From assembly GCA_000092065.1 (NCBI GenBank), contig CP000593.1: a stretch of DNA of 64,000 nucleotides; one strand, given 5' to 3'. Both the position numbers and the translations under genes were made by a program. The stretch's first letter is position 1. Each line of letters begins with the position of its first letter. The notes under the pieces were generated by a model. The model saw nothing but the letters and a program-made list of their open reading frames with translations. It ran no database searches and was not told the DNA's origin. This document shows positions 3,811 through 36,339 of this stretch, one piece after another. The DNA is from Ostreococcus lucimarinus (Eukaryota).

Positions 3811-3880
3811 GGCCGACGTCGTCGCGCGTCGGTCGCGCTGGTGACGGTTAGCGTTTTGAATACTTTTGTTCATCTGTTTC

Positions 3881-3960: not shown

Positions 3961-4087
3961 CGACGGCGACGGCGACGGCGTCGCCGCACACGACGTCGCG
4001 CAAAAGCGTCGACTTACGCGCCCGCTCGAACGTCGCGAACGCGTCATGCCCATCTTCTGAACCATCAAAACGGCCGCCGACGGCGCG

Positions 4088-14000: not shown

Positions 14001-14322
14001 TTTTTCCGTTCGTACGCCGTGAGCGCGCGGTGGGTCTTATTGAATTTCCGTCGAATATTCGCCAGTTCCTTCTCCACGCGCGCGCGCTCTTGCTCCTGCG
14101 TTCGCGTTCGCGACGCGCGCGACCCTCGTCGTCAGTCCGCGCGCCTCTCTCTCGCGCTCTCGCCGCTCAACGCGTCACCGCGCGTCGTTTCGTTCGATCG
14201 AATGCCCTCGCCCGTCGTCGTCATCCCTCGCGCGCGCGCGCTCGCCGCACCTTATTACTGCAGTTCCGCACGTCTTGCACGAACACCGTCAGGCCGCGCA
14301 TACCACCGAGAAACGGCGCCAT
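11087..14322 (-). CDS. AP-2 complex subunit alpha (alpha-adaptin), two exons: complement(14251..14322) and complement(11087..14095) (about 1026 aa)
   Basis: Exon 1 MAPFLGGMRGLTVFVQDVRNCSNK matches human alpha-adaptin (GMRGLAVFISDIRNCKSK). Exon 2 EQERARVEKELANIRRKFNKT...KYVLKLLYIYMLGYNVDFGHTEALKLI... matches throughout, down to the appendage DPNPANL motif. The junction reads CSNK|EQERARVEKELANIR versus human CKSKEAEIKRINKELANIR. Confidence 0.9.
14096..14250 (-). other. Spliceosomal intron (155 nt) of the AP-2 alpha gene, introner-like family member
   Basis: Minus-strand reading: donor GTGCGGCGAG; internal gggcattcgatcgaacgaaacgacgcgcgg; branch GGACTGACGACGAGGG; acceptor GAACGCAG. Confidence 0.8.
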
Positions 14323-14542: not shown

Positions 14543-17110
14543 ATGCCGCGGTCGAGTCGAGCGAAGCGGCGTCGCGGCGTCGCGGCGACGGCGCTCGCGC
14601 GCGCGCTGATCGCGGCGTCGTGGTCGTGCGTCGTCGCGCTGCGCCCGGGGGCGTCGATGTCGATCGACTGCGTGACGCCCGAGGTCGGGCCGGCGGTGGG
14701 CGGGACGCTGGTGACGCTCGCGGGCGAGGGGTACGGCGGGAGCGCGGACGCGGCGTGCGCGTTCGACGACGCCGTCGTCGCGCCGACGTCGAAGGGGACG
14801 CAGAGCGGGCACGCGACGATGGTGTGCCTGAGCCCGAGGCACGCGGACGATCGAGGAGGGTTCGTGAGCGTGGGGCTGACGCTGCGAAGGGCGAACCGAG
14901 CGGCGACGACGGCGCCGATGAATGAAAACGGCGAGACGTTTAATTTCGCGAAACAGATGTCGGTGACGAACGCGTACCCGACGGACGCGCCGGAGATCGG
15001 GGGAGAGGTGTTTTATTTGCAAGGGAAGCACTTGCACGAGGCGGTGAGCGTGCGATGGACGAAGCCGGTGACGCACGTGGGGGTGGACGTGGTGTCGAGC
15101 GCGTTGATTCGATGCGAGACGCCGCCGCTGACGAGCGGGGAGATTTCGTCCATGGTGATCGCGACGTTCACGGCGTCGCAGAGCGAGTACGACGCGAATG
15201 CGCTCGCGGCGACGACGGCGAATCAGACGGTTTCCATACCTCCGCGATCGCGCGGAGTGTTGGGATTTGTGTTGGAGACGAATGACTTTTCGCTCACGAG
15301 CGCCACGTCGAGCGTCAACGTCACGGGCGGCACGCCCGTGTTGGTCACGGGGAACGGTTTTAGCACCGTCGGCGGGGAGGACGACGGAGACTTTTTGAGT
15401 TGCTTCTTTGGCACGATAGGCCCCATCGACGCGCGCGTGACGGCGTCGAAGACGGCGACGTGCTACTCGCCCGCGCGCGCGGCGGCGGCGAGCGTGCCGT
15501 TGCGCTTGGGCATCGGCAACGGTCGCTTCGTACTCACGACGACCGTGAACGTGGCGTTTACCGAAACAACGCGACAGACAACCGACCCACTTGAGCCCGC
15601 GGAAGAGGCACAGAGCTTGGTGGTGATGAATCCGACGCTAGACGTCGCGAGCGGCGCGACGCCGTTTGACGTCGTCCTCGGCGGCAATTTCTTCGTTAGA
15701 GGTTCAGGTTTTTCTTTCGATTATGATGACGGTTGCGTGTGCACCTATCCCGATGCCTCGACTTCACGATTGGTGTACGTATCTAGCGCTATCGCGCGGT
15801 GTTTGGACACCCCGACTTGGACATCGGGAGAGGTGAAAATTAGCTGTAGCGCCGACGCGAACGCGGTGGTTCGCTCCGTGTACGTCGCCCCCGTGGCGGT
15901 GCCAACGATCACGAGCGTGGACGTGCTGACGATCACGCATCAGGGTGGCGTGGCGTTACAAGTCACTGGGACGTCGTATCCCGACGAAGGCGAGAGTCGA
16001 GCGTATTCGGGATGTCATTTCGGTGCCGTCGGTCCCGTGCACGCGCGATATATGAGCGGGACAGTTGCCGAATGTGTGACACCGGCGTTGAAGCCGTCGC
16101 AGAGCGCGCTCATGCTCGGGTTCGGGGCGACGGAGTCGGTAGATTTAGTACAGTACGGGTTGACTATTCCAGTCACCGCGGAGACGACGTCGGCGTACGT
16201 CGCGCCGCCGTTGTGGTTGACGCCGGCGACGACATACCTCGCTGCGGCGACGGCGAAAATAATCGTCGGGGATCATCAACAGCTCGGGACGTTGTCCGTG
16301 GGAACTTTGAAGTGCGTGTTCGGTTCAGGAAATTTAAATGCCACTGTCGGTACGTACGTCGCACCCTCAGTGCACTGTCCGACGCCCGCACTCCTGTCCC
16401 CAGGCTTCGTCGTCGTGCGATTGGCGCGCGACGCCGCCGCGGCGTCGCTCGATCCGCCGGCGATTTTGTTAGTCAAGGAAGACCACGCGGTTACTGGCGC
16501 GCATCCGCGCCAGACCTGGGGACCGGTAGACGTGATATCAATCACGGGATCGAATCTCATATCCACGCACGTCGAGGGAACGATAGATTCCGCGAAATCG
16601 CTGTGCGTGTTCGGCGGCGGCGCCGGCGTCTCTGGTGGCGTCGTTGTTTCGAGCGCGTTGATCATGTGCGAGTCTCCGCTCGCAGAGTCCACGGGTGTGG
16701 TCGAGCGTTGGGTGACGCCGTGTTTCGAAGAGTGCGATTCCACCAAAGCATTACCCACCGGATCGACCGCCTCCGCCTCGCACACGCGCGTGGCGTTGAC
16801 GTCCATGGCGCAATCGTACATGTCCGCCGTCGACGCGGCGAGCGGTTGGACATTCGGCGGCACGCCAGTTCGCGCCACGCTCTCCATCGCCGTCGCGAGT
16901 GAGATGCTTACGTGCCACTTTGGTTCCACGCGCGTCCAAGCCCGCCCCGCGGGAGTCGCCGTCGTCGAAACCGTCGCTTCGGCGCAGGGCGAAAACATTG
17001 AAATCGACTGCGTGTCCCCCGCGCGCGAGCGCGGATCCGTCACCGTGTACGCCACCCTGGCGCAATCCCGCGCCCCACTCTTGAGCGGTGTGGCGTTTCT
17101 GTACAAGTAG
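14543..17110 (+). CDS. Secreted or cell-surface protein with signal peptide and at least five IPT/TIG (immunoglobulin-like fold) domains (about 855 aa)
   Basis: ATG at 14543 (an alternative upstream ATG is at 14480). [33 protein letters not shown] looks like a signal peptide. Repeated IPT/TIG signatures: SIDCVTPEVGPAVGGTLVTLAGEGYG, VNVTGGTPVLVTGNGF, LTITHQGGVALQVTGTSY, ISITGSNLI, WTFGGTPVRATL. The track ORF start at 13943 overlaps the AP-2 alpha gene and is rejected. Divergent from AP-2 alpha with a 220-bp promoter region. Confidence 0.6.
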   Translation: MPRSSRAKRRRGVAATALARALIAASWSCVVALRPGASMSIDCVTPEVGPAVGGTLVTLAGEGYGGSADAACAFDDAVVAPTSKGTQSGHATMVCLSPRHADDRGGFVSVGLTLRRANRAATTAPMNENGETFNFAKQMSVTNAYPTDAPEIGGEVFYLQGKHLHEAVSVRWTKPVTHVGVDVVSSALIRCETPPLTSGEISSMVIATFTASQSEYDANALAATTANQTVSIPPRSRGVLGFVLETNDFSLTSATSSVNVTGGTPVLVTGNGFSTVGGEDDGDFLSCFFGTIGPIDARVTASKTATCYSPARAAAASVPLRLGIGNGRFVLTTTVNVAFTETTRQTTDPLEPAEEAQSLVVMNPTLDVASGATPFDVVLGGNFFVRGSGFSFDYDDGCVCTYPDASTSRLVYVSSAIARCLDTPTWTSGEVKISCSADANAVVRSVYVAPVAVPTITSVDVLTITHQGGVALQVTGTSYPDEGESRAYSGCHFGAVGPVHARYMSGTVAECVTPALKPSQSALMLGFGATESVDLVQYGLTIPVTAETTSAYVAPPLWLTPATTYLAAATAKIIVGDHQQLGTLSVGTLKCVFGSGNLNATVGTYVAPSVHCPTPALLSPGFVVVRLARDAAAASLDPPAILLVKEDHAVTGAHPRQTWGPVDVISITGSNLISTHVEGTIDSAKSLCVFGGGAGVSGGVVVSSALIMCESPLAESTGVVERWVTPCFEECDSTKALPTGSTASASHTRVALTSMAQSYMSAVDAASGWTFGGTPVRATLSIAVASEMLTCHFGSTRVQARPAGVAVVETVASAQGENIEIDCVSPARERGSVTVYATLAQSRAPLLSGVAFLYK

Positions 17111-17206: not shown

Positions 17207-17955
17207 ATGGCGTCCCTCGCGCGACCGGGCGTCGCCTACACCCTTCGCGGCGCGTTGTATCTCGCGTTGACCAACCAAACGAATGCGACGCCGCTGACGC
17301 GACTCCGCGGACCCGCGTTCTCGATGCCGGCGTCGTCAAAGTTTCAGTTACTGACCGAGCCCGAGCCGACGGCTGCTGAACTCGTCGACGTCATCGACGC
17401 CTTCTACGACGCGCTGCCGCCCATCGCGAGCAGGTGCGTCGACGCGACCGCGCGCGCGGCTCGATTCCACCCGCGAGCGTCTCTCGCGCTCGATCGGACC
17501 CCGCGCTGACGAAAGAAGTGACTCTGGACGACGCGCGCAGCGGCGAGAGCGACCCGGGCGTCGTCTTCGCGGGATACGGCGAACCGTTGCTGCGCCACGA
17601 CGTGCTGTGCGACGCGCTGCGAGAGATACGAGCGCGAAGACACGGAATCGCGACGCGCGTCGCGACGAATGGACTGGTGGATGTGGCGGTGTGCGACGCG
17701 TTGCGGGACGCCGGATTGCGAAGCGTGACGGTTAACTTTGCGAGCGCGGATCCGGATGAGTACGCGCGAATCATGGCGCCGAGGGACGGAAGGACGCAAG
17801 GAGACGCGTTGGCGTTCATTGAACGATGTAGTGAACTCGGGATGGAGGTAGAGGCGACGACGACGCGAACGCCCGGCGTGGATATCGCTCGCGCCAGAGA
17901 GCTCACGATGGCGCTCGGCGCCAGCGCGTTTCGAGAACGCGAATATTTCCCTTAG
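17207..17955 (+). CDS. Radical-SAM-fold protein lacking the CX3CX2C cluster (cysteine-less, putative pseudo-enzyme), two exons: 17207..17433 and 17541..17955 (213 aa)
   Basis: Spliced product ...LYLALTNQTNATPLTRL...LLTEPEPTAAELVDVIDAFYDALPPIAS|S|GESDPGVVFAGYGEPLLRHDVLCDALREIRARRHGIATRVATNGL...VTVNFASAD... carries the radical SAM core motifs (GGEPLL-like GYGEPLL, TNG, VxVSxD). Where the canonical CNxxCxYC segment should be it has TNQTNAT. The intron is phase 2 and the splice restores the frame exactly (107 nt). Confidence 0.55.
17434..17540 (+). other. Spliceosomal intron (107 nt), introner-like family member, in the radical-SAM-like gene
   Basis: Donor GTGCGTCGAC, an identical 10-mer to the Derlin intron donor. 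Internal gcggctcgattccacc and gcgctcgatcgg. Branch GCGCTGACGAAAG. Acceptor GACGACGCGCGCAG (compare Derlin GACGACGCGCGCGCGCGACTCGACGCAG). Confidence 0.7.
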
Positions 17956-18007: not shown

Positions 18008-20965
18008 CTATGTATTGTGCAGTCGCGATCTTTTCGCGGGCGTGAAGTCGTCGGCCAGCTTGCGGACGGGCGCACGATTCGCCAACGGCGTCGACATCGC
18101 GCCGCCGACGGGTGTCGCGGCGACAATTGCTCGCGGTCCCCCGCGCATCGGCGCGGGCGTGGTGCCGCCCATGGGCGTGCATTTCACTATCGCGGGCGTC
18201 GATAGCGCGCGGTTACCGCTCGGTGCGGGCGTGGCGCCACCTTGGAGAGCTGAATGGCGCGTAACGCCGCGAAACGTTTGCGGTCGCGGATGCGCGAACG
18301 TCGGCTTTTTCAAATCTTTGACGGACACCTTGACTTCCTTCGTGTTGTTCCGCCCACGCGCGAGGTGATGCCAGCCCTCGTGCGGTTTCGCCTTAATTTT
18401 GAGCTTCGGCGCCGGTTCTGCGGGTGCGAGTCTTTCCGGTGCTTTCGGCTTTCTTGGTGAGCGCCTGAGCGCGGGCACGGGAGAAAACGGCGTCAACGCG
18501 ACGGCACTTGCGTCGCCGCCGGCGTCGGGTTCCATGGTCAAGCCGAGATCGCGCTGCAACACTCGCAAAGTGTCTGGTATGAATCCGCTATAGTGTGGAG
18601 TCAACTCTGCCGCCATCAACGAGCGCACGCCCTCGACGCCGCAGGGTTGAAGAAGAAAATGAATCTCGTCCACCAACTTTTGCACAGACTTGACGAGTTT
18701 CTTTTGCTCTTTCTTCGAGATGGCGCGCTCTTCGACAGCCTCGCACGCGTCCGCGCCATTCTCATCGCGCACTTGCGTCACTTTGAGAGAAGCCAACTGC
18801 AGCGCGACGTGCATCTGTAATATGAACTCCAGCCGCTTGGCCGCCTTGGATGAGTGTACACCGACGTACTTTGCCTTGAGCTCTTTTGAATTCTTCGCGA
18901 TTGCGCGTTCGAGTCGCTCGACGAGATTATCGTCTTCGTTCGAGCCCACGCTCAAGCGGAATCGATAAATAATCTTGGCAGCGAAATCATGGAGATTCGG
19001 CTCGTTCAATCCGTCCCCACCTTCGAGCGCGCTGAACGTAGCGACGAATGACTCGTATTCCTCGAGCGCCGCCTGTTCGACATCCCCAGTCCATGGCGGC
19101 ACGTCAGCGTCCATTGCAAACACCGTTAGCGTAGACGCGAGCGATCGTCGCGCTCGTGACTTTCGCGGCGGCGAAACAATGCCATTATGGCGTTTGAGCA
19201 TGTCCTTGAACCGTTCATCGAGATTATTCAAGAGTTCGCCCGCGGTGTCTGAAGATTTCGTCGCTTTATCTTCCACGCGACGCAACATTTCTCGAGTCTT
19301 TGGCACCAAATCGCGCGAGCCGTACCAAGCTTCCAACCGAGAGGCATCTTGTTGCACGCCAATTCGCTGGTCCGCGATGAAAGCTTCCTCAAGGGTGTTC
19401 ACATCGACCGGCATCAGCGGCGCACTTGAGCTCTGCGTCGCAGCGTCCATCGACAACACTTGTTGCGTCAACGCTAAAGAATCCTGCGTCGCCGGAGGTG
19501 ACACAATCTTCTCGCGCACGTCTTCGCGAATCTTCGCGAGCAATACGTGCACATTTTCGAGTGACGCTAAACAATCTCGCCTCGACGCGAGTTTAACAAT
19601 TTCGCTCCGAGCGCTCGCTTTCGCTGCCGACGCGCGCGGGCACAGCTCGCCAGGCGTCGTCTTCAGGGAAGTGACGATGAAGGACGAACACGTCAACGGC
19701 TCTAGAATCGCGATCTGCTCGTGTCTCCCAGCATCGCGTCGGACGACTGCGACTGCGTCTTTTAGTACAAGCATCGCCATAAGCGCACGAATCGGCGAGT
19801 CGTCAAAGCACAAAATGGTTTGCGTTTCAACAGCCAGCGCCGCGGCTGAGGGCGCTTCGGCGCGGTCGATGAAACCGACAATGGCAATCGAACCGTCACC
19901 TCGACCATGATATCGCGCTTGATGGGCTTCGCCTAAGCGATGCGCCGATTGCGAGTCTCGAGTCTCGACGATTATGTCCACCGTACTTGTCGACTCCACC
20001 GTAGTCGTGGACGCGCTCGCCTCGTCACCGCGGCTCAGCGCCGAGAGCGTCGAATACAGCGGCAGCCAGGACGCGAGTCTGCTCGCGACATCGAGCGATA
20101 TCACCGCACCATTCAATTTATGAAACGTCTCTTGCAAGACGTCCGCGAACGCGCCCGTCGGTCCGTCGCCGACGTACAACAAATGCGCTCGAACGCGGTC
20201 TCGCTTGAACTTCTCCTCGATGCCTTTAAACAACTTGGCCACGTGCTTCGCATCAACCTTCGCCGCTTCCGCTTCCGACAGCTCGGGGAGTGCGGTGATG
20301 ATGAATAACGCGCTGTACTTCTCGCCTTCGTCGTCGTCGTCCGCGAAAGTCGCGGCGAATCCGCCGCCCGCGGCGGCGAAATCGTTCGTCGCCGCGCCGA
20401 CGTTCCGCGTCGCGTTCACCAACCAACTCTCGATCGCCCCCCGTCCATCCTCGTCGCTCGCCGCGACGTCGCCGCCGCTCGTAAATGTCTCTAAATACTC
20501 CCCGCACGTCGTCTCGCACGTCCTGAACGCGTCCTCGACGGCGTTTTTGTCGCACCGCCGAAACTTTCCAAACTCATCGCCGCGTCGTCCCGTCGCCTCT
20601 CGCGCCCGCGCGTCGAACGCGTGCGGCGGCACCGACCCATCGCACGCGCGCACGGTAAATTCAACGTCTTCGCCCGCGCGCCCGTCGACGGCGCGTTCGA
20701 GCGCGCGGCGCGCGAAGGTTTTCCAAGTTGAAGATTTAAAATCAGCTCCCGACGTCGACGCCGACTGCGTCGCGCTCGCGCGCTCGCGCGTCGCGCGCGC
20801 GTCGACGAGAAAGTGCACGCGTCGCGGGCGCGCTGTGTGCGCGGCGTCGACGCGCATGTCCCGCGCGCGCGGGTGAGTGACGCGGTGCCTGGATCCGAGC
20901 GCGCTCGACGCGAAGCCGAGCGGCGAGCGGCGAGCACACGCGCTGTCGGCTCGCGGACGCGCCAT
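18008..20965 (-). CDS. Hypothetical 985-aa protein with a C-terminal tail rich in Ser/Thr-Pro motifs; possibly a Treslin/Sld3-like replication factor (speculative)
   Basis: ATG at 20965. Non-repetitive composition over 900 aa. The C-terminus (TPAPSGNRALSTPAIVKCTPMGGTTPAPMRGGPRAIVAATPVGGAMSTPLANRAPVRKL) is packed with minimal CDK-type S/T-P sites. An N-terminal segment SALFIITALPELSEAEAAKV loosely resembles the Treslin N-domain. No decisive family motif. Confidence 0.45.
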   Translation of the reverse strand: MARPRADSACARRSPLGFASSALGSRHRVTHPRARDMRVDAAHTARPRRVHFLVDARATRERASATQSASTSGADFKSSTWKTFARRALERAVDGRAGEDVEFTVRACDGSVPPHAFDARAREATGRRGDEFGKFRRCDKNAVEDAFRTCETTCGEYLETFTSGGDVAASDEDGRGAIESWLVNATRNVGAATNDFAAAGGGFAATFADDDDEGEKYSALFIITALPELSEAEAAKVDAKHVAKLFKGIEEKFKRDRVRAHLLYVGDGPTGAFADVLQETFHKLNGAVISLDVASRLASWLPLYSTLSALSRGDEASASTTTVESTSTVDIIVETRDSQSAHRLGEAHQARYHGRGDGSIAIVGFIDRAEAPSAAALAVETQTILCFDDSPIRALMAMLVLKDAVAVVRRDAGRHEQIAILEPLTCSSFIVTSLKTTPGELCPRASAAKASARSEIVKLASRRDCLASLENVHVLLAKIREDVREKIVSPPATQDSLALTQQVLSMDAATQSSSAPLMPVDVNTLEEAFIADQRIGVQQDASRLEAWYGSRDLVPKTREMLRRVEDKATKSSDTAGELLNNLDERFKDMLKRHNGIVSPPRKSRARRSLASTLTVFAMDADVPPWTGDVEQAALEEYESFVATFSALEGGDGLNEPNLHDFAAKIIYRFRLSVGSNEDDNLVERLERAIAKNSKELKAKYVGVHSSKAAKRLEFILQMHVALQLASLKVTQVRDENGADACEAVEERAISKKEQKKLVKSVQKLVDEIHFLLQPCGVEGVRSLMAAELTPHYSGFIPDTLRVLQRDLGLTMEPDAGGDASAVALTPFSPVPALRRSPRKPKAPERLAPAEPAPKLKIKAKPHEGWHHLARGRNNTKEVKVSVKDLKKPTFAHPRPQTFRGVTRHSALQGGATPAPSGNRALSTPAIVKCTPMGGTTPAPMRGGPRAIVAATPVGGAMSTPLANRAPVRKLADDFTPAKRSRLHNT

Positions 20966-21025: not shown

Positions 21026-24000
21026 TCAGGATAAATCGAAGCCGCTGCCGGACTTGACGGCGTACATTAATTTTTCGCGCAACGCGTCGTCGGAAGAATA
21101 CGGCGGTAGTTTCAGAAGGTTCATGCACGTCGCGGCGGTGGGAAGCCTGGTCAAGTCCGCGGTCGCGTCGGGGGCGTCCGTGCCCGCGGTACCGCTTCGA
21201 TGCACGCACAGTTTGGGTTCGAGATGCGAAAACCCGAGCAGTGGTGTGTTGCTGCACGAGGTGATGAATTTGAGCACCAAACGTTGGTCGTCTGGGGAAA
21301 TCGTACGCATGACGCGCCACAACGCGCGAATCGTCGGATGCGACGCCTCGTAGCCGCCAGAGTATTCGCAGTTTGCCGCCATGTCATCGATGTCCATGCT
21401 TCCCGTGCGATTACCTGATATGAGTAATCGCAGTTCGGCGGGGGTGAACATGTCGAGCCAACGCTTGCGAACGGCGATGCTAAAGCCCGCCTTCATGCTC
21501 GAAAGTTGGCGGTAGATTTGCGCTCGAAGCAAATAAATCGACATGCAATGAAGGTACCGCGGGACGTTAGCCCTCGTCACCGGTACGCTCGAGCCATTCG
21601 GGATGAGCTCGATCACAGTTTCTTCCATGCCACTTCGATCGATGGCGGTAAAGTACAGACATAAATCCTCGACGTCGCCTTGGTAGCGTTTGAGCGAAAC
21701 CAAGTTGCGATAAAGCTCGGGATCGAGCGTCGTCAGGTCGTTAAACTCGACGTGTCGACCTTTCAGCGAGGCGAGGAAGAAATCAGCGAGTGGAACGTCG
21801 AGAAGAATCCCATCGTAGCACGCTTTGCCGAGGATGGCGCCGAGAAAGTAAAAGTACTGCAAGTGTCGCTCGCCCGCGTGCAACTCAGACGCTGGATTCG
21901 GGTAGAGCGTGCGCTCGGGCGTCTCGACGAACAAGCCGAATTTCGGATCGAACGCTTCCGCAATTAAATCGTTCAAGAAATCTTTGAATAAACCGCCGCC
22001 GTCGACGCCAGCCTCTTCGAGCCCTTGCTGATTGATGAACTGCACGCGAATGATTCCGCCGAGCGTCTCTGTGAGCTTATCCGAAAGACCGGCGATGCCG
22101 TCTTCGAGCAAGTGCCCGCGTCTTACGCGAATCGTGGCGTAACCAACGGCGCCCATTTGACGCTCGCGACGACGGACGTCCATGAATTTGTGCACGCGCA
22201 CTTCGAACGGTACCAAACACGGTGCACCGCACAAAAGCATCGACGCGCGCGATTTTGCATCGCGGGCCTCTTGCAAAAGCGTTGGGATGTCCACTTGGGC
22301 GTCGCGCACTTGAAACTCGAGCGGGTTCATAAATTGATGACGCCCGTTGCGATCGTGCAGGCGCGCGAGCGCTATAGAACACGCGTGCCATGTCTCCGCC
22401 TCGAAATATTCGTCGATGAAAGACAGCGCGTTTAAAGGTGTGCCATCCGGACCCCGTTCAACCCACAGCAACGTCCAGAGCGTGTCTCTTAAAAATGCGA
22501 CGAGACGCGTCGTCGCCTCGAGACCGAGCGGTTTTCCCAGACGATAAAATTCTTCATCGTCGGAAATAGCGGTGTAGGTGTTGTACAACTTTGCGAAAAC
22601 GCCCAAGGCTCTGCGGAACGAGCGTTCTTGCCCACCTCCGGAAGTTTGCCTCCAATGCTCGAGGGCGGGCCAAAGTTGAGCGATGCAATCCGTGCCAAAC
22701 GTGAGCACGCGCGTGAACGACGCTCGCTCGGCGCCTCTGAGCACCATGTCGCACGCGCACGCGAAATGCGTGAACCCTTCGATGCCTACTAAGCATCGCT
22801 GCGCGTCGTTCGCAGGCATGATCGTTGTGACGAGTCGCGCGACACACGCGTTGTCGCCGAAGAATTCGCGCGTTTGCATCCACGTCCTCGTGGCTCGCAC
22901 CGCCTCCATGTCCACGTCAGGGGGCACGCGTCGAATTTTACGCGCCTCCGCGCGCACGGCGCGAAGATTGAGTAAGTCAATCTTGACGCTATCGTCGTCG
23001 TCGTCGTCGTCGTCCGCACCGCCCTCGTCATCGTCTTCGTCCTCCATCGCGTTCGGCGTTGTGGCAAAGAGCGCGCCGCTCAAAACAGACGACTCCATGA
23101 GTTTTGTCACCGCGACGACGACATTCTGTGACTGCGAAAAGTCCATCGTACCTATGAACGTTTTCGTGAGTTGCAACACGTTCCCGAGCGCGGCGTCGAC
23201 GCCGCTCAGCGGCGTCTCGAGTGCGACGGTAGCCACCGAGTCGACGTGACGATCAGACTTGAACGCGTCGACGACGAACGACCACAAATCTCTCGAATGA
23301 ATCTCCGGCCCGAACGTGTCCCACACCCCGGGTATCGTCGCGAGCATCGACGCGAGCGCACCACTCGCGTCGTCACCGCTACACCGCGCGATGTTTTCGC
23401 ACGTCCTAAGCATCGCCGCCCGAACGACGTCGTCGCGGCGACTTTGATTTCTCAAAATATCGAGCAAAATCTCTCGCACATCTTCCAAACCATCGTTCGA
23501 GCACAGAGTCGCGCACAATTGAACGCCAGTATCTTTCCATCTCGCGTCATCTCTCGCCATGAGCGCCAACAAAGCGCTCGCTAAGTGCGTCTCCGCGACG
23601 TCGCGTCCAGTCGTCTCCTCCAAGCGCGTCGTCGCTCGAAGCGACCCCACGATCAACCGCACCATCTTCCGCATCCTAATCACCCATCGCGCGCGCTCCA
23701 CGCCCGACGCCCGCATCGCGTCGTCCCATCTCTCCACGAACGCCTCGCTCGGCGCCACGCTCGTCGTCGTCGTCGCCGCCGCGTACAACCGTTCACACGC
23801 CGCCGCGCACGCCGCCCAATCTCTCCATCCATCACCAAAATACACCAAAGCCCTGCACGACGCGTCATCAACCATCACACCTTCGCTCGCGTTCGCGTAC
23901 GCTTCCCTCACCGCCGCTTTCGCGCGTCTAACCTCCCGCGCGCCTCGTCGAAACCGCTGCGCCGTCGCCGTCGCCGTCGCCGTCGCCCTCTGCGCCGCCC

Positions 24001-24124
24001 TCCGCTCCCGCGCCTCGCGCGCGCTCTCGATCAGCGCCCGCTGCGTCGACGGTTCATCCTTTCGCCGTCCTCCGAGCGAGATGTGTCGCTTTTTCGTCGT
24101 CGATCCGTCGAACACCGGCGCCAT
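21026..24124 (-). CDS. HECT-type E3 ubiquitin ligase, UBE3B/UBE3C-like (1032 aa)
   Basis: N-terminus [24 protein letters not shown] parallels UBE3B MFSFEGDFKTRPKVSLGGASRKEE. C-terminal HECT lobe with [39 protein letters not shown] parallels UBE3B [39 protein letters not shown]. It contains a coding (AT)n dipeptide repeat, (GCCGTC)6, at about 23961-23995. Confidence 0.9.
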   Translation of the reverse strand: [1032 protein letters not shown]

Positions 24125-24347
24125 TCGTTCGCGAGTTTACCAAACTGTGTCAATCGAGATTCACAATCGCCGACCGCGCGCGACGCGCCGCGCGCCGCGC
24201 GACGTCGGCGCGTCCGCGCGACGCGCACCGACGCGTCGACGCGCGTCGACGCGCGATTCGCGCGCGATTCGTGCGCGCGCGCGCGAATGCCGGCGGAATG
24301 ACGCGACGCAATCGTCACTCGCCGACGCATCGGCCGCGCGCGCCGCC

Positions 24348-27300
24348 ATGGCGTCGCGCGCGACGACGCGCGACGTCGACGACGGCGGCGTGTTATTCCC
24401 GCGGTGCGTTACGCCGACGCGCTCTCGCGCGCGCGCGCGTCGACGCGCGACGACGACGCGATGATGACGCGACGAGGGCGCGCCGACTGACGCGACGAAT
24501 CGACGAAACGACGCGCGCAGAGTGACGCATCAGCGCATCGACGTCGACGTGAGGCGCACGAAACGCGCGCTTCGCGGCAGGACGACGCTGACGTGCGCGG
24601 GCGCGGACGGCGCGTTCGCGGGCGCGCGGGTTCGCGCCGAGGGGTTGAAGATCGCGTCGTGCGCGATAAACGGTGCGAGACGCGCGAGGCGAAGCGACGA
24701 CGACGACGACGACGACGAGCGATTCGAACGATGCAAACGATGCGATGCGACGCGATGCGACGCCGCGACGAGAGGAGGCGCGAGCGGGGAGACTGACGGG
24801 TGATGGATGGAATTCGACGCGCGCCAGGCGTGGAGTGTCGAGCGACGAAGACGAAGACGAGTAAACCGACGATCGGGACGAAGACGGCGCCGAGCGATGC
24901 GTTGAGCCTGGCGAAAGACGTGCGGACGTATTTGGAGTCTGAGAGTAACTTGGACGGAGAGGAACACTCGAGGGAGGTGGTGATCGCGCCGGTGAGCGGG
25001 GAGAAGATTGAGGCTCGAGCGCGAGGCGCGGCGAACGGGGAGTCGACGTCGGCGACTACGGAGAAGGAAATCGTGATTGAGATCGAGTACGAAACGGACG
25101 AAAGCGCGATGGGAATCGCGGCGGATGAATCGTACTTTTTGTGCCCGGGGGCGTCGAGGCGGCCGGCGTGTTGGTTTCCGTGCGTCGAGCGAGGGGACGT
25201 GCTGACGACGTTTGATTTCTCGGTGAGCGCGCCGAGGGATTTGCAAGTCATCACGTCCGCGCATTGGGATCGCGTCGAGCGGTGCAACGACATCGATGAA
25301 GACGAAGACGGCTTTAGGCTGCGACATCACTTCACGGGGATGTATCCGACGTTTGCGCACGAAATGCGATTGATTTGTGGCAGGTTCAAGGCGGTGTCGA
25401 GCCCGATCAAAGGCGTGACTTTGTTCGCTCCCAAAGACGGCGATTACGCCGAGCGCTTGGAGATCGCGGCCGCGGGTGTGAGTAAGGCTATCGTGGCGTA
25501 CGAGGAATATCTCGGGCATCCGTACCCTATTTCGTGCTTGAATATCGTCTTCATGCCGGACGAGTACGTGGGAGCGCGCGATAGCTTGGGCGCGTGCATG
25601 AACATTCACTCGGCTAAATGGTTGATAGACCCGACGCTCAACACGGCTTTGCTCGATGCGCGCGTGCATATCGCCACCGCCATCGCGCGACAGTGGTTCG
25701 GGGGCGTCGTCGTCCCGGCGGATACCACGGACTGTTGGGTCGTGGAAGGACTGGCGCAGTATCTCGCCGGCGCGTATGTGAAAAAGTTGACGGGATTGAA
25801 CGAACTGTCGTTCAGGCGCATGCGCGACATGCAATTGACGGCGCGGATGGACGACGGTGAATCACTCCCCCCTCTCGCCAGTCGTGCGGCGCGCATTTGG
25901 CGCGCCGGACAGTACGCCGGCCCCGACCTTGCCGCCGGCGGGACGCCGAAGCCACTCTCGGCGAGCGTCGAGCGCGGGTTGCAAGCCAAGGCGGTGACGA
26001 TCATTTACATGCTCGAGAAACGCCTCGGGCCGGATGTCATGCAGAAGGTGTTGAAATATTTCGCAGGATTGCATGTTCGTAGAAATAAGAAGGAGGGCGG
26101 GACGCGCGCTGGTCCCTCCGCGGAGGTGCTGTCGAGCAACGCGCGTTGGATTCACACGCTGCAACTCTTCGATCACTGCCGCGCGACGGTCAACTTGGGC
26201 AAAGGTGAGGTGAACTCCTTCTTAGAACGCTGGGTGTATGGCGCGGGCACGCCGAAGCTGTGCGTTGGATACGTTGTGAAACGTAGGAAAAACGTCATGG
26301 AGTTTGCGGTCAAACTCGAAGGGAGCGTCGCGGCGGCGGCGGCCGACAGAGCGGCACTCGCCGTCGCCAGAAACCATCGCACTTCGGTCACCGTGCGCAT
26401 GCGCGAAGAGAACCGCCCGGATGCGAACGATCACGTCGTATCGCTAGGACATTCTGCTTGGCAGTTGATGGAGATTCCTCTGCAACCGAAAATCAAAGAT
26501 CGTCGCCCGAAGACAATCATCGAATCTGGAGGTGACCCCGAACTCATCGCCGCGATGGATTGTCCGGTACGATACGTCCGCGTGGACCCGGAATTCGAGT
26601 GGATGGGCAACATAGAACAAAGTGCGAAGCAGGTCGGGTTAGAGTCGATGATGGCGCAGATGCTGGAGAAAGAAAAAGACATCGTCGCGCAAACCATCGC
26701 CGTGGAATTTCTCGGTCGCCGCGTCGCCAACGGATCCGTGAGCGCAGTTCTCGTGCTGGATAAGTGTCTGAACTCTGAGGATACCTTCTGTCGCGTGCGC
26801 GCCGAAGCAGCGCTAGCGCTCGGCAAAAGTGCGAGCGAGAAAACGCAATGGGGCGGATTGAACGCGTTGATTCGGCATTACAAAAAGTTTCAGTGCGACG
26901 CCAACACGGGAAAGCCGAAACAAAACGACTTTAGAGACCTCGCGAAAGTCATCGTTGACGAAGCCGTCATCACGGCGCTTGGTTACGTCATGGATAACGG
27001 AATCACCCATCAGGATGCGCTCGAGGCTATCGTTGCCCGACTAAAGTATAACGACAACGAGGGCAATCCGCAGAGTGATGACGGATTCGTGGCGACGTGC
27101 ATCGCCGCGCTCGGCCGCTGCGTTCCCGCGGATGGCAAGCAACTGCAAACCGTCATGCAGACGATTCATTACTACATTCGGCGTGATGACAGATTTCCAA
27201 GCGACGACCTTTGCGTGACGTGCGCTGGAATCAGAGCGTTAGGCTTACTCGCTTCGACGATCGACTCGAAAGAGCTCCGCGCCGACGCCGAACACGTCGC

Positions 27301-28141
27301 CAAACTTGGATTCGCGCTCGGTAGACAATCCACCGTGCTCGCTTCCGCGGACACGATGATGTACCTTCGCTTCGTCGAAACTAAGAGCGAGATCGAAGCG
27401 CTCAAGTACATGCTTGAACGATCGGCGCAAGAGTCTGCGGCGACAAAGGCTGCCATGTTGTGGAGCGCGTGCGAGTACTTGCAATCCGTCGCCGGGGCGG
27501 ATTCTTTGAAGGGCGTCTCGAAGCCGATATTGGCCGACCTCCGTGATCTCGTGCTAAAGGGCGGAAGCGAAATTGCGAGCGCGGCGTTTTCGATCCTCGC
27601 CACGCTCGCTTCGCAAGATGAGAGCCTGAGTGAGATTCGAGAATCCATCGCCGAGGCGATTCGGCGCGCGGGCGATCAAGTCCCAGTCGGCGTCGATGTC
27701 CACGCCGCGCACGCCGCGCCAACGGCTGAGGATGAAGTCAAGCGCGCGGAGAAGGAAGCTAAGCGTGCTCGGAAGCGAGAACGCGAGCGCTTGCGACAAG
27801 CCGCGCGCGCCGAGGTAGACTTGAAAAACGCTGAACAGCGTAGAATCGACGCCGAGGCGGCGTTTGTCGAACAGCAAGCGGAACACGTACAAGACGACAA
27901 GACGACCGTCTCCGAGCGCACGGCGACGATGATGGGATCAGAAGGCGACGCCACGCCTCAAGGTGGTACTCCGGTGGGTGGCCTGAAGCGCGCGAGAGAT
28001 CAGAATCCGAGCGTCACGCAGTTTGCCGTGGAGCCTGCGGCGCCCGTCGCGACGGAGGACGCCGCGCCCGCCGCGACGGAGGACGCCGCGCCCGCGAAGA
28101 AGCTCAAACTTTCGTTCAAAATTAAAAAACCCACGACGTAG
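24348..28141 (+). CDS. TAF2: Transcription initiation factor TFIID subunit 2 (TAF2), three exons: 24348..24403, 24521..24672 and 24828..28141 (about 1173 aa)
   Basis: Main exon: FLCPGASRRPACWFPCVERGDVLTTFDFSV matches human TAF2 [32 protein letters not shown]. Aminopeptidase-N-like region (WVVEGLAQYLAGAYVKK), HEAT-like body and K/E-rich tail. Upstream exons: MASRATTRDVDDGGVLFP-R-VTHQRIDVDVRRTKRALRGRTTLTC... parallels human [32 protein letters not shown]. Exons are joined by two GT-AG introns of the introner-like family. Phases are consistent (56 nt + 152 nt + 3314 nt). The upstream exon model is less certain than the main exon. Confidence 0.75.
24404..24520 (+). other. Spliceosomal intron 1 of TAF2 (117 nt), introner-like family member
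   Basis: Donor GTGCGTTACG. The intron contains tandem in-frame stops (tgatga), so the two exons cannot be one ORF. Branch CCGACTGACGCGACGAATCGACGAAACGACG. Acceptor GCGCGCAG. Confidence 0.6.
24673..24827 (+). other. Spliceosomal intron 2 of TAF2 (155 nt), introner-like family member
   Basis: Donor GTGCGAGACG. Internal gattcgaacgatgc (compare the AP-2 alpha intron cattcgatcgaacga). Branch GAGACTGACGGGTG. Acceptor GCGCCAG. Same length (155 nt) as the AP-2 alpha intron. Confidence 0.6.
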
Positions 28142-33600: not shown

Positions 33601-35272
33601 CGCTTTGCAGCACTCGCGCGAGCTTGTCCAAAGAATCGTACGGCGCTCGCGCACCGCTGGGCTTCTCGTCGCCGTCGTAGGCGGTGATGAATGCCTTGCG
33701 ACATATCACCATGAGATCAGGCGTTTGCCTGAGCGGGACGGTCTTGGCGGCGTCTTGAAACGCGACGAGGACTTCTTCCGAAGCCAGCGCGTCGTTGACT
33801 TTTTCGCCGTTTGCCATCGCCTCTATGACGACTTCACCTACAGATTCCATGAACTCTGGTAGCTGACGCATCTCGGCGAACGCTTTTATCATCGTTTGCG
33901 TCACCGCGACGCACTCTTCACGGGCGTCGCGCGATTTCACGAGTAAGAGCGTCAACATCACCTTGACGTGCGGCTCGACTAATCGCAAATCCAACGTTGA
34001 CAACGCGCCGATGACTCTGGACCAACCTCGATCGCGCACCTCATTCGTCTTTACGACCGTTGCGATGCTGGTCACGAACGCCTGCAGCGCGCTTTCGACG
34101 CGACCTTCGTCTTCCAGAGGCGAGTAAATCGTGAAATCGACGGCAATGTCGAGTAATCCGACGAGCGCATCGACGAGCGCGGAGGCGGCGTCTTCGTCGA
34201 CGCGTCGCTCACCCTTCCCGCCCGTCGGTACCGCAACGAAAGCGGCGGCGATCGGTTCAAAGAGCTCGACGAAGAGCGCGCGCGCGTCTTTTGACACCGA
34301 TTCACTCGACTTGTTCGCCGAACTGCTCGCCGTGGGTTTACGCTCGTTTGCGTCTTGCTCGCACGTCGCTCGCAAGACCCAAGGCGCCAAGCGCAACGCG
34401 TCCACGTCCATGCTTTCCGCCGCTCGCGCGACGCGTGCGATGGTGTCGCAAATGAACCCGGGCGCGGACGAACGCGCGCCGCCGGCGCCGCGAGCGTCGT
34501 CCGTCGAGGCTATCGTTTTCTGCTTCTTCGCGCTCGCCGCGTCGGCGACTAAATTCGGAATCGCGCGAGCGTACATCGGGTGCAACACGAACGCCCGCAT
34601 CGTCGCGTCGCACGCCTCCTTCGCACCTCTCCGCGCGTCCCCCTCGCCCGCTCGCGACCACGTCTCGACGACGCTCCACAAAAACTCAAAATCCACGCAC
34701 GCCGGCGCGGGCTTATTCGGCTGCGCGTTCGCCGCCGCCGCCGCCGCCGCGAGCGCCGCGCTCATCAGCGCCGCATTCCCCTCGTCCCACATCGCGCTCT
34801 TCGCCACCTCGACGCACTCTTCGCACGACGCCCTCGCGCCGCGTCGCTCGCCGTCGTCGCGCGTCAACGCGTCGAACGCCCGTCGCAGCGTCTCCCCATC
34901 GACCGCTCGCGCCCTCGACGCCGCCGCCCGTCGCAGCGCGCGCATCACCTCCCTTCGCCCCGCGCTCGCGTCCGTCGTCATCGCGCGTCCCGATCGCGTC
35001 GCCCTTTCGCTCGCGTCCGCGAAGCACCGCCACAGCGTCTCCTCGTCCCGCGTCCCGTCCCGCGTCGCGTCGTCGCCTCGGCGCTCGCGCGTCGTCGACG
35101 CGTCGTCGCGTCGTCCCGCGCGTCGCAGTCGCGCGCGCGTCCACGCGAGGACGACCGCGCGCGCGTCGTCGTCGTCGTCGTCGTCGAGCGCGGCGCGCGC
35201 CGCGGCGAGTCGTTCGGCGTCGCTCGCGCCGTCGGCGAACAGCGTCGCGCGCAGGCGCGTCGCGCGCGACAT
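30674..35272 (-). CDS. Large alpha-helical (HEAT/ARM-like) repeat protein of unknown function (about 1532 aa)
   Basis: Continuous 4.6-kb minus-strand ORF with non-repetitive, Leu/Ala-rich helical composition. Start chosen at ATG 35272 (MSRATRLRATLF...). The track ORF begins at ATG 35413 but the intervening 47 residues are an Arg-run (RRRRRRRARPRRASPRARARARRRARVG). Either start is possible. Confidence 0.5.
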   Translation of the reverse strand: MSRATRLRATLFADGASDAERLAAARAALDDDDDDDARAVVLAWTRARLRRAGRRDDASTTRERRGDDATRDGTRDEETLWRCFADASERATRSGRAMTTDASAGRREVMRALRRAAASRARAVDGETLRRAFDALTRDDGERRGARASCEECVEVAKSAMWDEGNAALMSAALAAAAAAANAQPNKPAPACVDFEFLWSVVETWSRAGEGDARRGAKEACDATMRAFVLHPMYARAIPNLVADAASAKKQKTIASTDDARGAGGARSSAPGFICDTIARVARAAESMDVDALRLAPWVLRATCEQDANERKPTASSSANKSSESVSKDARALFVELFEPIAAAFVAVPTGGKGERRVDEDAASALVDALVGLLDIAVDFTIYSPLEDEGRVESALQAFVTSIATVVKTNEVRDRGWSRVIGALSTLDLRLVEPHVKVMLTLLLVKSRDAREECVAVTQTMIKAFAEMRQLPEFMESVGEVVIEAMANGEKVNDALASEEVLVAFQDAAKTVPLRQTPDLMVICRKAFITAYDGDEKPSGARAPYDSLDKLARVLQSALGTCPIDAGEPLLPEAQACLEGFSEDIAQRLHSHVESSPARTGALLRAYVPVASLRQGLSEVADATARDSYFRSESVDLSAIVRHLVRDSPRANQEHENAESAAIGCAIQRVNNLSRLRYPREDVSPEESAKAGSEIKSLLSACLKLVPDTLTTSYDAPDSKTEAWKVLTSTIDLWYEQATDARILDYYRCRLETDIEGEGALSTEEEDKFSELVATFKPWVRAIASVITRGAVDLTRELKESLSRDDDSSAAGRCDVLEDIIADCVENKRQGEAACDKIKDFWIGPASTPITDGFGKNCTREDSAALKRMRRAVDAAERLHYRAVSETDVHELSIALQIGDCAMFNAASLGMSSAMDLCTRVRSRSAFLATHDEDSAMIVSGLITRGGHYLNVTNLALRNMLDVELASRLIESTTSAFQASLVGSALKVKAAVYTNAATNVARLLDDRFINEDSIERNVANVGGAFALSLVESLFAAANVVHTEPEREKYGWVDGNPDLDEEDELTDEQGDAIAQFWDAPAVMQVRARIESMILDMKNGLENGEFKPVAESVEVVASCVSAAGFILAVSATTLDYSEAFHRTCDADFVQNAIAVAIKVLLDTSNELSSRGTSRLVNFIGAACDALKQTGPQLTSEAHASLVAVLMFTYTRGTRALVDRDGAKSATPAADLHESLSLTMSELVYGAGKRPLTAMYDACVDAFKTTDAESRRAYLSSDRLDVSLAAPMWCLMNLVKSFHLGKAIRTAAQENVETVMDACMRAMTVAIRVPNANAVVHKLLEITTEFARLGPRCEISTRCVSRMCQLPSVACASDAVFDDGDAMTKIFCQACELIGVLLKSRKDHLRRAVSGITVACSDLLAALRRFKASGASAAVMESCAGKLSFVYESAEASGLDRYCTHLLADAITAITGGGIGVVAESALKPGLFALLDSSGDRELQQLHAALGAGAGGARRVVFAALREEHKHTHKFTGRV

Positions 35273-35369
35273 GCCGACGCGCGCGCGGCGTCTCGCGCGC
35301 GCGCGGGCGCGCGGCGACGCGCGACGCGGTCTCGCGCGCCGTCGGCGGCGTCGCCGCGCCGTCGGTTCG

Positions 35370-35460
35370 TACATATAGGGCTTTACGTGATTATATATGT
35401 CTCGTATGTGCATACAGTCTAACTACCGACGAACGGTCGGTCGGTCGGACGCGCGACGGC
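35370..35460. promoter_or_regulatory. Bidirectional core-promoter region with TATA-like AT-rich patch between the large helical-repeat gene (-) and the METTL21-like gene (+)
   Basis: A locally AT-rich island in a 65%-GC context: gggctttacgtgattatatatgtctcgtatgtgcatacagtctaactacc, containing TATATAT and TTATATA. It lies 35-120 bp upstream of both divergent ATGs. Confidence 0.3.
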
Positions 35461-35493
35461 GCGGACGCACCGCGCCGCGCACCGCGCCGCGCG

Positions 35494-35644
35494 ATGGCGT
35501 CGACGTGGCGCCGGAACCGCCTGAGCTTTCGCGAGAAATTCGTCGACGCGTGCGACGTCGACGGCGTCGTCGTGCGGCAGTACGCGTCGAGCGAGGCGTT
35601 CGTCAAGGCGACCGGGACGACCGGGACGACCGGGACGACGACGC

Positions 35645-35679
<35 letters not shown>

Positions 35680-36339
35680 GTGCCGGCGACGGGATTCACG
35701 GTGTGGGACGCGAGCGTGCTGCTGGGAAAGTACGTCGGACGGGAGAGGACGTGGCGGCGGTTGACGAAGAAGGCGCGCGAGGACGCGCGCGGGCCGACGA
35801 CGCTCGAGCTGGGCGCGGGCACGGGACTGGCGACGCTGCTCGTCGCGGCGGCGCGGGGAAGCGCGGAGGGAGAGGCGGGGATGGTGTGCGCGATGACGGA
35901 TTTAAAGCGGGTCGTGCCGCTGACGCGGATGAACGCGCGGGCGAATAAGGCGGAAAGCGGAGGGCGGATACCGGCGAGCGTGGCGATGGCGACGACGACG
36001 CTGCGGTGGGGACGCGCGGAGGACGTGGAGCGGTTGCCGGAGGCGATTCGGCGGCCGGACGTGGTGCTGGGAGCGGATTTGATGTATACCTCGGACGAAG
36101 GCGTGATTCGCGCGCTGGCGGCGACGACGATGGCGTTGGTGGGGCCGGGTCGCGCGGCGGTGTTCGCGGCGTGTAAAGAGCATCGACCGGAGAGCGTCGA
36201 GTTGTTCGCGTCGATCATCGAGGCGAACGGTTTCGAGGTCACGCGCGTGCCGGCGTCCGAGGCGCATCCCGATTATCCGGCGTCGAACGAGGAATTCGAG
36301 CTGCTCGAGTGCTGGCGACCGCGACCGCGCGCCGACTAA
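35494..36339 (+). CDS. Protein-lysine N-methyltransferase, Methyltransf_16 (METTL21/FAM86/VCP-KMT-like) (281 aa)
   Basis: ATG at 35494. GFTVWDASVLLGKYV...TLELGAGTGLATLLVAAA...CAMTDL...LRWG...PDVVLGADLMYT matches the Methyltransf_16 motif order. It contains a coding poly-Asp run ((GAC)n at 35640-35670). Confidence 0.75.

Follow-up and report, generated by a model that had tools for sequence, protein, structure and literature searches.

The region directly upstream of the large TAF2 open reading frame (ORF) is, with high confidence, the true 5' end of the gene for TAF2 (TFIID subunit 2) in Ostreococcus lucimarinus CCE9901, a very small marine alga, where the gene has three coding exons. Translation would start at ATG 24348 and, once two ordinary spliceosomal introns had been removed from the transcript, yield a TAF2 protein of 1173 aa. 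The deposited protein (P0011, XP_001421003.1, with XP_001422892.1 identical to it) is a single-exon product of 1112 aa; it matches the ORF with 100% identity and has ATG 24803 as its start codon, with the N-terminus MDGIRRAPGVEC. This start lies inside intron 2, so that about 70 N-terminal residues are missing and eight intron-encoded residues (MDGIRRAP) are added.

The three-exon model

The features of the locus are given below in coordinates of the window, that is, the whole 64-kb stretch of DNA that was analysed.

21026-24124, minus strand: coding sequence of a UBE3C/UBE3B-type HECT ubiquitin ligase, 1032 aa, start ATG at 24124-24122
24125-24347, no strand: spacer between the two start codons, 223 bp, GC content 73%, CpG observed/expected 2.2
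24348-24403, plus strand: TAF2 exon 1, 56 nt of predicted coding sequence, specifying MASRATTRDVDDGGVLFP and two bases of an Arg codon
24404-24520, plus strand: predicted intron 1, 117 nt, phase 2, GTGCGT...GCAG
24521-24672, plus strand: TAF2 exon 2, 152 nt, residues R19-G70, RVTHQRIDVDVRRTKRALRGRTTLTC...LKIASCAING
24673-24827, plus strand: predicted intron 2, 155 nt, phase 1, GTGCGA...CCAG, contains ATG 24803
24828-28141, plus strand: TAF2 exon 3, 3314 nt with the stop codon counted, same frame as the large ORF 24800-28141

Joined together, the three exons form a coding sequence with a length that is a multiple of 3 and without internal stops. The predicted spliced N-terminus reads MASRATTRDVDDGGVLFPR/VTHQRIDVDV...AING/VECRATK (slashes mark exon junctions); in the mRNA, the junction 24403^24521 would read ..TTATTCCCGCG/AGTGACGCATCAG.. 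and the junction 24672^24828 would read ..TGCGCGATAAACG/GCGTGGAGTGTCG.., with the peptide AEGLKIASCAINGVECR across the second junction. Exon 2 contains no in-frame ATG and its first base falls mid-codon, so that a coding exon upstream is required. Exon 2 supplies the conserved TAF2 start RVTHQR...ING and, with it, the opening beta-strands of the N-terminal, aminopeptidase-like domain. The remainder of this domain comes from exon 3, as do, in order, an M1-peptidase-like domain that is inactive, an Ig-like domain of the TAF2 type and the TPR/HEAT repeats of TAF2. A complete N-terminal beta domain, with the HQ strand within ~40 residues of the start, is obtained only when exons 1 and 2 are spliced in.

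The preliminary description of this DNA had proposed the same structure, and its exon and intron coordinates and arithmetic all proved correct on recomputation, with consistent phases (phase 2 for intron 1 and phase 1 for intron 2). Its observation that the large TAF2 ORF lacks the conserved N-terminus also holds for the deposited 1112-aa protein, which misses the HQ-strand segment. The central proposal, namely, that two 5' exons restore the TAF2 start and move the initiation codon to 24348, finds strong support in the orthologues, among them one that lacks an intron, in the O. tauri gene model, in homology and in a structure model.

Conservation, splice signals and homology of the restored N-terminus

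The conservation of the upstream exons is seen directly in the other Ostreococcus lineages. In each of the six other lineages, tblastn places the exon 2 peptide just 5' of the main ORF (E-values from 2e-15 to 2e-6), in an exon of 152-170 nt with a length that is always 2 mod 3; at the nucleotide level, exon 2 evolves fast (53-67% identity), with only a modest excess of changes at third positions. Exon 1 varies between 14 and 65 nt, always ends at a GT[AG]CG donor in phase 2, and, in six other lineages, retains DVDxxGVLFP-R or, at a minimum, the P-R at its end. An orthologue of intron 1 is present in 7/7 lineages (111-152 nt, the lengths not being tied to multiples of 3) and an orthologue of intron 2 in five other lineages (86-164 nt). 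The remaining lineage (loci L003 and L004) lacks intron 2, and exon 2 continues directly into the main ORF as ..VNGVECAAE..; this continuous ..VNG-VEC.. is a natural control for the predicted ..ING/VEC.. at junction 2. In O. tauri, the orthologous three-exon protein of 1161 aa is already in the databases (CEG00203.1/XP_022840250.1 and OUS46374.1), and the three-exon model of locus L001 is equal to CEG00203.1 and OUS46374.1 in 1157/1161 and 1159/1161 positions, respectively, without a single indel. The O. tauri annotation was guided by RNA-seq, with 89% of the introns validated (PMC4378021).

Judged by their boundaries and branch motifs, both introns match the type that is standard in O. lucimarinus, with the correct phase, a GTGCG donor and a CAG acceptor. 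The branch motif GACTGACG occupies 24485-24492 in intron 1 and 24791-24798 in intron 2, which places the branch A (24490 and 24796) 30 and 31 nt, respectively, from the 3' end of the intron. Among the orthologous introns, 13/13 begin with GT[AG]CG. Outside chromosome 2, 87% of the O. lucimarinus introns confirmed by ESTs contain ACTGAC and 66.5% contain GACTGACG (PMC2483917). A composite intron signature (GTRCG, RCTGAC, 5-45 nt, YAG) occurs twice on the plus strand of 24125-24900, compared with a mean of 0.04 in dinucleotide shuffles (P = 0.0015). In the window as a whole, this signature is not enriched (11 occurrences observed vs 18.9 in shuffles), so that on its own it proves little and the comparative support is decisive. 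An exact-match scan of a metagenome contig collection, which may hold no cDNA, yielded 0 matches for each of the two spliced junctions, and when the N-terminal 140 aa of the spliced product served as a protein query, the only matches were two unspliced genomic ORFs. The splicing itself and the use of ATG 24348 in O. lucimarinus are what we infer; indirect support for the splicing comes from the orthologue without intron 2 and from the O. tauri model.

The identity of the protein is clear from the domains encoded in the ORF: Peptidase_M1 (PF01433, 2.8e-11), TAF2 Ig-like (PF25316, 1.6e-11) and TPR/HEAT (PF25577, 6.2e-17), the last two scoring above their own Pfam cut-offs, and phmmer matches human TAF2 at 7e-30. 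The alignment of the spliced N-terminus to TAF2 orthologues, which the preliminary description had put forward as a check, extends the homology into the restored part: residues 19-71 find their counterpart in residues 6-58 of a distant TAF2 (E 5e-6), and the exon 2 segment also aligns to about 25 TAF2 or M1 N-termini. A library-wide search with HMMER gives alignments to four TAF2s that begin at profile position 18-23 and, in the proteins themselves, at residue 7-38 for three of them and at residue 82 for the fourth. A profile of the Ostreococcus N-termini finds residues 15-73 of leukotriene A4 hydrolase (LTA4H), and a profile of TAF2 N-termini finds residues 27-90 of Komagataella (K. phaffii) TAF2 and residues 27-88 of human TAF2.

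The fold of the restored N-terminus was modeled with AlphaFold using a 44-sequence alignment (pLDDT 82, pTM 0.84), which replaced a run with a 3-sequence alignment that was unusable (pLDDT 33). In this model, residues 19-77 form confident beta-strands (pLDDT 86-96 for residues 21-80) and residues 1-14 have low confidence. The top Foldseek match is human TAF2 (7edx_B), with an E-value of 6e-26 over 485 columns.

The start codon and alternative readings

Confidence in the precise start codon is lower than in the structure of exons 2 and 3 because exon 1 is short, only weakly conserved before ..P-R, and ranges from 14 to 65 nt among the lineages. The alternative that survives best, although very unlikely, accepts exons 2 and 3 and places the start codon or the exon 1 boundary elsewhere than at ATG 24348, for example, in a different first exon or within exon 2. 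Along with the conservation of only the last residues of exon 1, the low AlphaFold confidence of residues 1-14 and the two candidate in-frame ATGs for exon 1 in one lineage (L007) are compatible with such a start. Initiation within exon 2 is contradicted by the lack of an in-frame ATG and the mid-codon beginning of this exon, and ATG 24348, in the context GCCGCCATGG, is the sole in-frame ATG between the HECT start and the exon 1 donor. Furthermore, the F-P-R/V junction resembles the PFRV or PFKL that opens distant TAF2s, and the orthologous ATG is the start codon in the curated O. tauri model.

Less likely still is the production of both forms, the spliced full-length TAF2 and a truncated isoform that would start at ATG 24803 through regulated retention of intron 2 or an internal transcription start. 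Should intron 2 be retained, the exon 2 frame would end at the TGA at 24801-24803, which overlaps ATG 24803, and O. lucimarinus and O. tauri alike have an in-frame ATG (MDG..) 20-25 nt before the acceptor, within a common GTGATGGATGG string. However, intron tails that are short and purine-rich could share such a string by chance, the other lineages do not conserve the ATG, and the beta-sandwich domain of the truncated protein would be incomplete. That the ATG in GTGATGGATGG and the overlapping stop mark a regulated intron-retention switch is a conjecture with even lower odds; if it were true, the switch would produce an N-terminally truncated TAF2 without the first beta-strands of the aminopeptidase-like domain.

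It is highly improbable, more so than either form of dual expression, that the deposited single-exon model is right, with the start at ATG 24803 and the upstream 'exons' being non-coding spacer DNA that resembles TAF2 by chance. This is the GenBank/RefSeq model, and O. tauri also has an in-frame ATG at the equivalent place, but this ATG is absent from three other loci (L005, L006 and L008), and the added MDGIRRAP is not conserved. All other TAF2s and M1-family proteins possess a domain whose first strands would be missing from the single-exon product. The peptide of exon 2 is conserved across seven lineages together with its frame and splice signals, and the O. tauri curators chose the three-exon form.

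The least credible alternative is that both introns are introner elements, a mobile, repeated intron family inserted recently: this was an impression in the preliminary description, and the introns are CG-rich and comparable in length to Micromonas introners, but blastn of both against the 64-kb window gives scattered, low-complexity CG-rich matches on both strands and no discrete family (best match, 78% identity over 87 nt), the intron sequences are not conserved from lineage to lineage, and the orthologous positions are found in lineages with TAF2 identity of only 62-79%. Because these positions are kept across lineages at such protein identity, the introns are old. The label 'introner-like' in the preliminary description is therefore not supported, given that the window matches are confined to CG-rich low-complexity DNA and the splice signals are standard.

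The three-exon TAF2 model corrects the annotation in a routine way and has little novelty, the right model being already public for the sister species O. tauri, and it implies no new biology, since neither the gene nor its fold, intron type or compact head-to-head layout is new. Its value is in curation: the truncated O. lucimarinus protein carries over into UniProt and into orthologue alignments. TAF2 is one case that shows how the first-generation gene models of Mamiellales systematically miss short 5' exons. In the evidence-based re-annotation of Micromonas, the changes were mostly 5' coding extensions (PMC4815162). Metagenome-derived sister lineages alone suffice to recover such missed 5' exons.

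The HECT ligase neighbor and comparison with known systems

The divergent neighbor of TAF2 was initially described as a UBE3B/C-like HECT ligase, and this assignment agrees with the best match to a solved structure, the UBE3C HECT domain (6k2c, 2e-96), far ahead of the next family, HUWE1 (2e-50). The Pfam HECT domain occupies residues 720-1032 (4e-89). The start codon of this gene is fixed by the N-terminus M(AP)VFDGxTxxxRxxSLGGR, which is conserved in four further lineages. The N-terminal alignment further includes a conserved IQ-like AQRFRRGxxxxR, for which the Pfam IQ models gave no match at E <= 0.01. On the other side of the spacer, long minus-strand ORFs (24409-25293 and 24530-25834) overlap the TAF2 5' region and are probably by-products of the high GC content.

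The 5' UTRs and core promoters of both genes must fit within the spacer that separates their start codons. The head-to-head orientation is kept in five lineages (221-251 bp), with orthologous spacers of 228, 228, 251 and 221 bp, and such short spacing, conserved across the genus, is the rule in so compact a genome; in the related Micromonas, spacers average 167-211 nt (PMC4815162). Of the initial claim of a 223-bp shared promoter, the spacing is exact; as for the sharing, a k-mer search across the five orthologous spacers found no conserved motif above dinucleotide-shuffled controls, and promoter elements might be common to TAF2 and the HECT ligase. A sigma-70 promoter and terminator scan, which is irrelevant for a eukaryote, found nothing.

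The closest known system is the O. tauri TAF2 gene, the direct orthologue, which has the same three coding exons, intron positions, phases and GTGCG/ACTGAC signals, and the same head-to-head HECT neighbor across a spacer of 228 bp. The two proteins are about 71% identical. Exon 1 of O. tauri is 38 nt long and lacks the VLFP motif, compared with 56 nt in O. lucimarinus, the introns are 132 and 86 nt as opposed to 117 and 155 nt, and the public gene model is complete in O. tauri but truncated in O. lucimarinus.

Human and yeast TAF2 (7edx_B, 6mzc_B and 6hqa_A) have the same domain order, that is, N-terminal beta domain, inactive M1-like domain, Ig-like domain and TPR/HEAT repeats, and their segment 'xxHQ..L.ID......G.TEL......L.A..L.I..V.VNG' corresponds to exon 2 in Ostreococcus. 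Identity to the Ostreococcus proteins is only about 19-23%, and Ostreococcus TAF2 differs in having a short disordered N-tail and an inserted acidic, low-complexity loop at about residues 80-150. LTA4H and other M1 aminopeptidases share the fold, and their first ~60 residues match exon 2 position for position. TAF2, in contrast, is a pseudo-enzyme: the catalytic HExxH zinc motif of the M1 family is lost, with AIARQ in its place (..AIARQWFGG.. in the window protein aligned with ..HELAHQWFGN.. in puromycin-sensitive aminopeptidase).

The divergent TAF2 and HECT ligase genes, with 223 bp from ATG to ATG, resemble bidirectional gene pairs in falling under the 1-kb criterion; a bidirectional promoter would be marked by shared regulatory elements or co-expression and by mapped transcription starts, and no conserved motif was found in the TAF2/HECT spacers above the shuffled background. 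Introner elements are near-identical copies repeated genome-wide that were described in Micromonas (PMC4540971), an alga of the same order, Mamiellales, and the TAF2 introns are similarly short. The Micromonas elements form a repeated family, whereas the TAF2 introns, with no family found within the window, occupy old, orthologous sites.

Exon-intron structure of TAF2

The long open reading frame (ORF) at 24800-28141 on the plus strand contains the TAF2-specific Pfam domains PF25316 and PF25577 along with Peptidase_M1 and, taken without additional exons, aligns with human TAF2 only from residue 178. Two more 5' exons had been proposed in the preliminary description, and their coordinates proved exact:

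24348-24403 (+), start codon ATG and exon 1, a 56-nt segment, context GCCGCCATGG
24404-24520 (+), intron 1, donor GTGCGT directly after the 56-nt segment, acceptor CAG ending at 24520
24521-24672 (+), exon 2, 152 nt, followed by the donor GTGCGA
24673-24827 (+), intron 2, acceptor CAG ending at 24827
24828-28141 (+), exon 3, in the same frame as the long ORF

The introns are in phases 2 and 1, consistent as had been claimed, and the predicted spliced coding sequence of 3522 nt contains no internal stops and yields 1173 amino acids with the N-terminus MASRATTRDVDDGGVLFPR/VTHQRIDVDV...CAING/VECRATK (slashes mark the junctions).

This structure was compared across six other Ostreococcus lineages from metagenome and Logan contigs, the latter being assemblies of public sequencing runs (contigs L001/L002, O. 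tauri; L005, O. mediterraneus cluster; L003/L004; L006; L007; L008), among which TAF2 protein identity is 62-79%. The exon 2 peptide is found just 5' of the main ORF in all six (tblastn, E 2e-15 to 2e-6, database of ~12 kb) and is bordered in each lineage by CAG before (phase 2) and by AACG with a GT[AG]CG donor after (phase 1). Exon 2 lengths (152, 161, 155, 170, 158 and 155 nt) are all 2 mod 3, the introns differ in length without constraint, intron 1 between 111 and 152 nt and intron 2 between 86 and 164 nt, and the spliced second junction in every lineage reads NG followed by (V/I/A)(E/A)C. Exon 1 ends with P-R at a GT[AG]CG donor in all lineages, and its motif DVDxxxV(L/I)(F/Y/T)P (DVDDGGVLFP in the window) is kept in four other lineages, L007 having DADASNVLFP; being short and variable, this exon leaves the predicted ATG at 24348 less secure than the remainder of the model.

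The genomic contigs L003 and L004, from the same lineage, have intron 1 and the neighbouring genes and lack intron 2, with exon 2 running unbroken into the main ORF (..CRVNGVECAAEAAKTDKP.., compared with ..CAINGVECRATKTKTSKP.. predicted at the same place for the spliced window). Because these contigs read through at this point, the predicted exon 2/exon 3 junction is fixed to the nucleotide. In a neighbour-joining tree, L003 nests between intron-bearing lineages, which identifies the event as a clean loss of intron 2 (L003 5934-6100, also L004, compared with window 24673-24827). The lineage with this exact loss, intron 1 being kept, comes from JGI samples 3300018423 and 3300023116.

Judging from their sequence, both introns are ordinary for O. 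lucimarinus. Intron 1 has the GACTGACG branch motif at 24485, its branch A 30 nt from the acceptor, and intron 2 has it at 24791, at a distance of 31 nt; an ACTGAC-type motif is found in 13 of the 13 orthologous introns, 23-39 nt from the 3' end. Outside chromosome 2, O. lucimarinus introns confirmed by ESTs have strong 5' splice sites and contain ACTGAC in 87% and GACTGACG in 66.5% of cases (Irimia & Roy, PMC2483917). The ‘introner-like' label initially given to both introns has to be dropped: introner elements, described in Micromonas, are defined by near-identical repeated copies (PMC4540971), within the 64-kb window blastn matches both introns to nothing but dispersed, CG-rich sequence of low complexity on either strand, and these introns have standard signals at old orthologous positions.

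Seemingly non-coding stretches throughout the window have a CpG-rich, CGACGCG-type low-complexity composition in common (for example, 20771-20852, 35066-35694, 52453-52509 and 56687-56765), so that spacers and introns with no relation to one another often match weakly in blastn; such composition can mimic a repeat family. Further composite GTRCG...RCTGAC...YAG signature sites are present elsewhere in the window, on both strands, and some may be other introns or mark missed short exons of neighbouring genes:

2206-2293, 10232-10355, 15880-15943, 17434-17540, 39355-39478, 44677-44860, 63810-63875 (+), intron-signature sites
14096-14250, 19073-19325 (-), intron-signature sites

Homology and fold of the restored N-terminus

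The conserved TAF2 start that the added exons were said to restore is recovered in distant TAF2 proteins. Residues 19-71 of the spliced model align with residues 6-58 of P0134, a distant 1199-aa TAF2 (RVTHQR+ +D+..., E 5e-6), and when 1.8 billion representative proteins were searched exhaustively with HMMER, four proteins, all TAF2 by Pfam, aligned from profile position 18-23, starting at their own residues 7-38 (P0139, P0089 and P0083) or 82 (P0145). When built from the seven Ostreococcus N-termini alone, a profile finds leukotriene A4 hydrolase (LTA4H) at residues 15-73, where the M1 N-domain begins (E ~1e-3), and one of eight TAF2 N-termini matches K. phaffii TAF2 27-90 (1e-10) and human TAF2 27-88 (1e-7). 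About 25 of the proteins in an alignment of 44 sequences match exon 2 as x(H/x)Q..L.(I/V)D......G.TEL.......L.A..L.I..V.VNG; all eight that were scanned with Pfam are TAF2, and the metazoan-type sequence PFKLSHQVLCI.. among the 25 agrees with the human string quoted in the preliminary description.

The AlphaFold model built on this alignment (mean pLDDT 82, pTM 0.84) forms five strands at residues 19-77 (block pLDDT 86-96), with residues 1-14 disordered. Its top Foldseek match in PDB is human TAF2 (7edx_B; E 6e-26, TM 0.73, 485 columns), followed by M1 aminopeptidases. The predicted structure shows compatibility with the TAF2 fold rather than independent proof because the input alignment includes TAF2 homologues.

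The HECT neighbour and the spacer

The divergent ORF at 21026-24124 (-) encodes a full HECT domain (Pfam 4e-89) closest to that of UBE3C (6k2c, 2e-96, compared with 2e-50 for HUWE1), in agreement with the proposed UBE3B/C-like identity. Its start is set at ATG 24124 because the N-terminal motif M(AP)VFDGxTxxxRxxSLGGR is conserved. The HECT(-)/TAF2(+) head-to-head order is present in every lineage whose contig extends far enough. The ATG-to-ATG spacer is 223 bp in the window, exactly as described, 228 in O. tauri and L007, 251 in L003 and 221 in L005; these spacers are CpG-rich (observed/expected 1.6-2.2). No 7- or 8-mers are common to the spacers above the dinucleotide-shuffle level. A common TAF2/HECT promoter region is plausible in this compact genome, and ‘short conserved head-to-head spacer' should replace ‘shared promoter'. 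In the related Micromonas, the mean intergenic distance is 167-211 nt (PMC4815162).

In the O. mediterraneus-like contig L005, the HECT gene (2241-5285, -) is called as a 790-aa ORF, and the conserved N-terminus MLFDGSTTRKRQISLGGRK, with its ATG at ~5285, sits apart in a separate piece, so that this gene has a putative intron or frameshift that the window gene lacks. A 181-aa L005 ORF (5206-5751, -) is probably spurious because it lies antisense to the spacer and to TAF2 exon 1, intron 1 and the first part of exon 2. Beyond the HECT 3' end, neither the adjoining 985-aa ORF (18008-20965, -) nor the overlapping plus-strand ORFs (18975-19910, 19940-20308 and 20205-20876) have a Pfam match; the relatives carry a plus-strand Kelch/beta-propeller gene at that position, so local synteny may differ in the window.

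The deposited O. lucimarinus model

The deposited ‘predicted protein' of O. lucimarinus CCE9901 (XP_001421003.1/ABO99296.1) is 100% identical to the window ORF product. This 1112-aa model opens with MDGIRRAPGVEC and thus starts at ATG 24803, 25 nt 5' of the intron 2 acceptor, so that the public model is the very alternative that the preliminary description sought to exclude. A minor isoform that retains intron 2 and uses this in-frame ATG is conceivable, given that the ATG, within GTGATGGATGG, is common to O. tauri, but it is missing in L005, L006 and L008.

A GATGGA(T) string lies directly 3' of the branch motif in the intron 2 tails of four of six lineages:

24790-24812, window
5305-5330, L001
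~585-612, L006
~2422-2440, L007

In O. lucimarinus and O. tauri, this string is GTGATGGATGG and yields an in-frame ATG (MDG..), which in O. lucimarinus is the deposited start codon; the common string could be due to chance or a retained intron element.

The three-exon structure is strongly supported, and the deposited O. lucimarinus annotation contains a real gene-structure error, correctly found in the preliminary description. The same 1112-aa sequence is also deposited as XP_001422892.1/ABP01251.1, which points to a segment around the locus that the assembly contains twice; if so, both copies would need the same correction.

Errors of this kind are routine, and the sister species already has the correct structure. 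In O. tauri, the proteins CEG00203.1/XP_022840250.1 and OUS46374.1 (1161 aa) start with MARDGASDAGRPRVSKQRVEL...ANGVACETTS and agree with the three-exon L001 model without indels, at 1157 and 1159 of 1161 positions. The orthologous structure had thus been made public already, in a species whose v2 annotation was guided by RNA-seq and curated by hand, with 89% of introns validated (PMC4378021). The evidence-based re-annotation of Micromonas likewise consisted chiefly of 5' coding extensions (PMC4815162).
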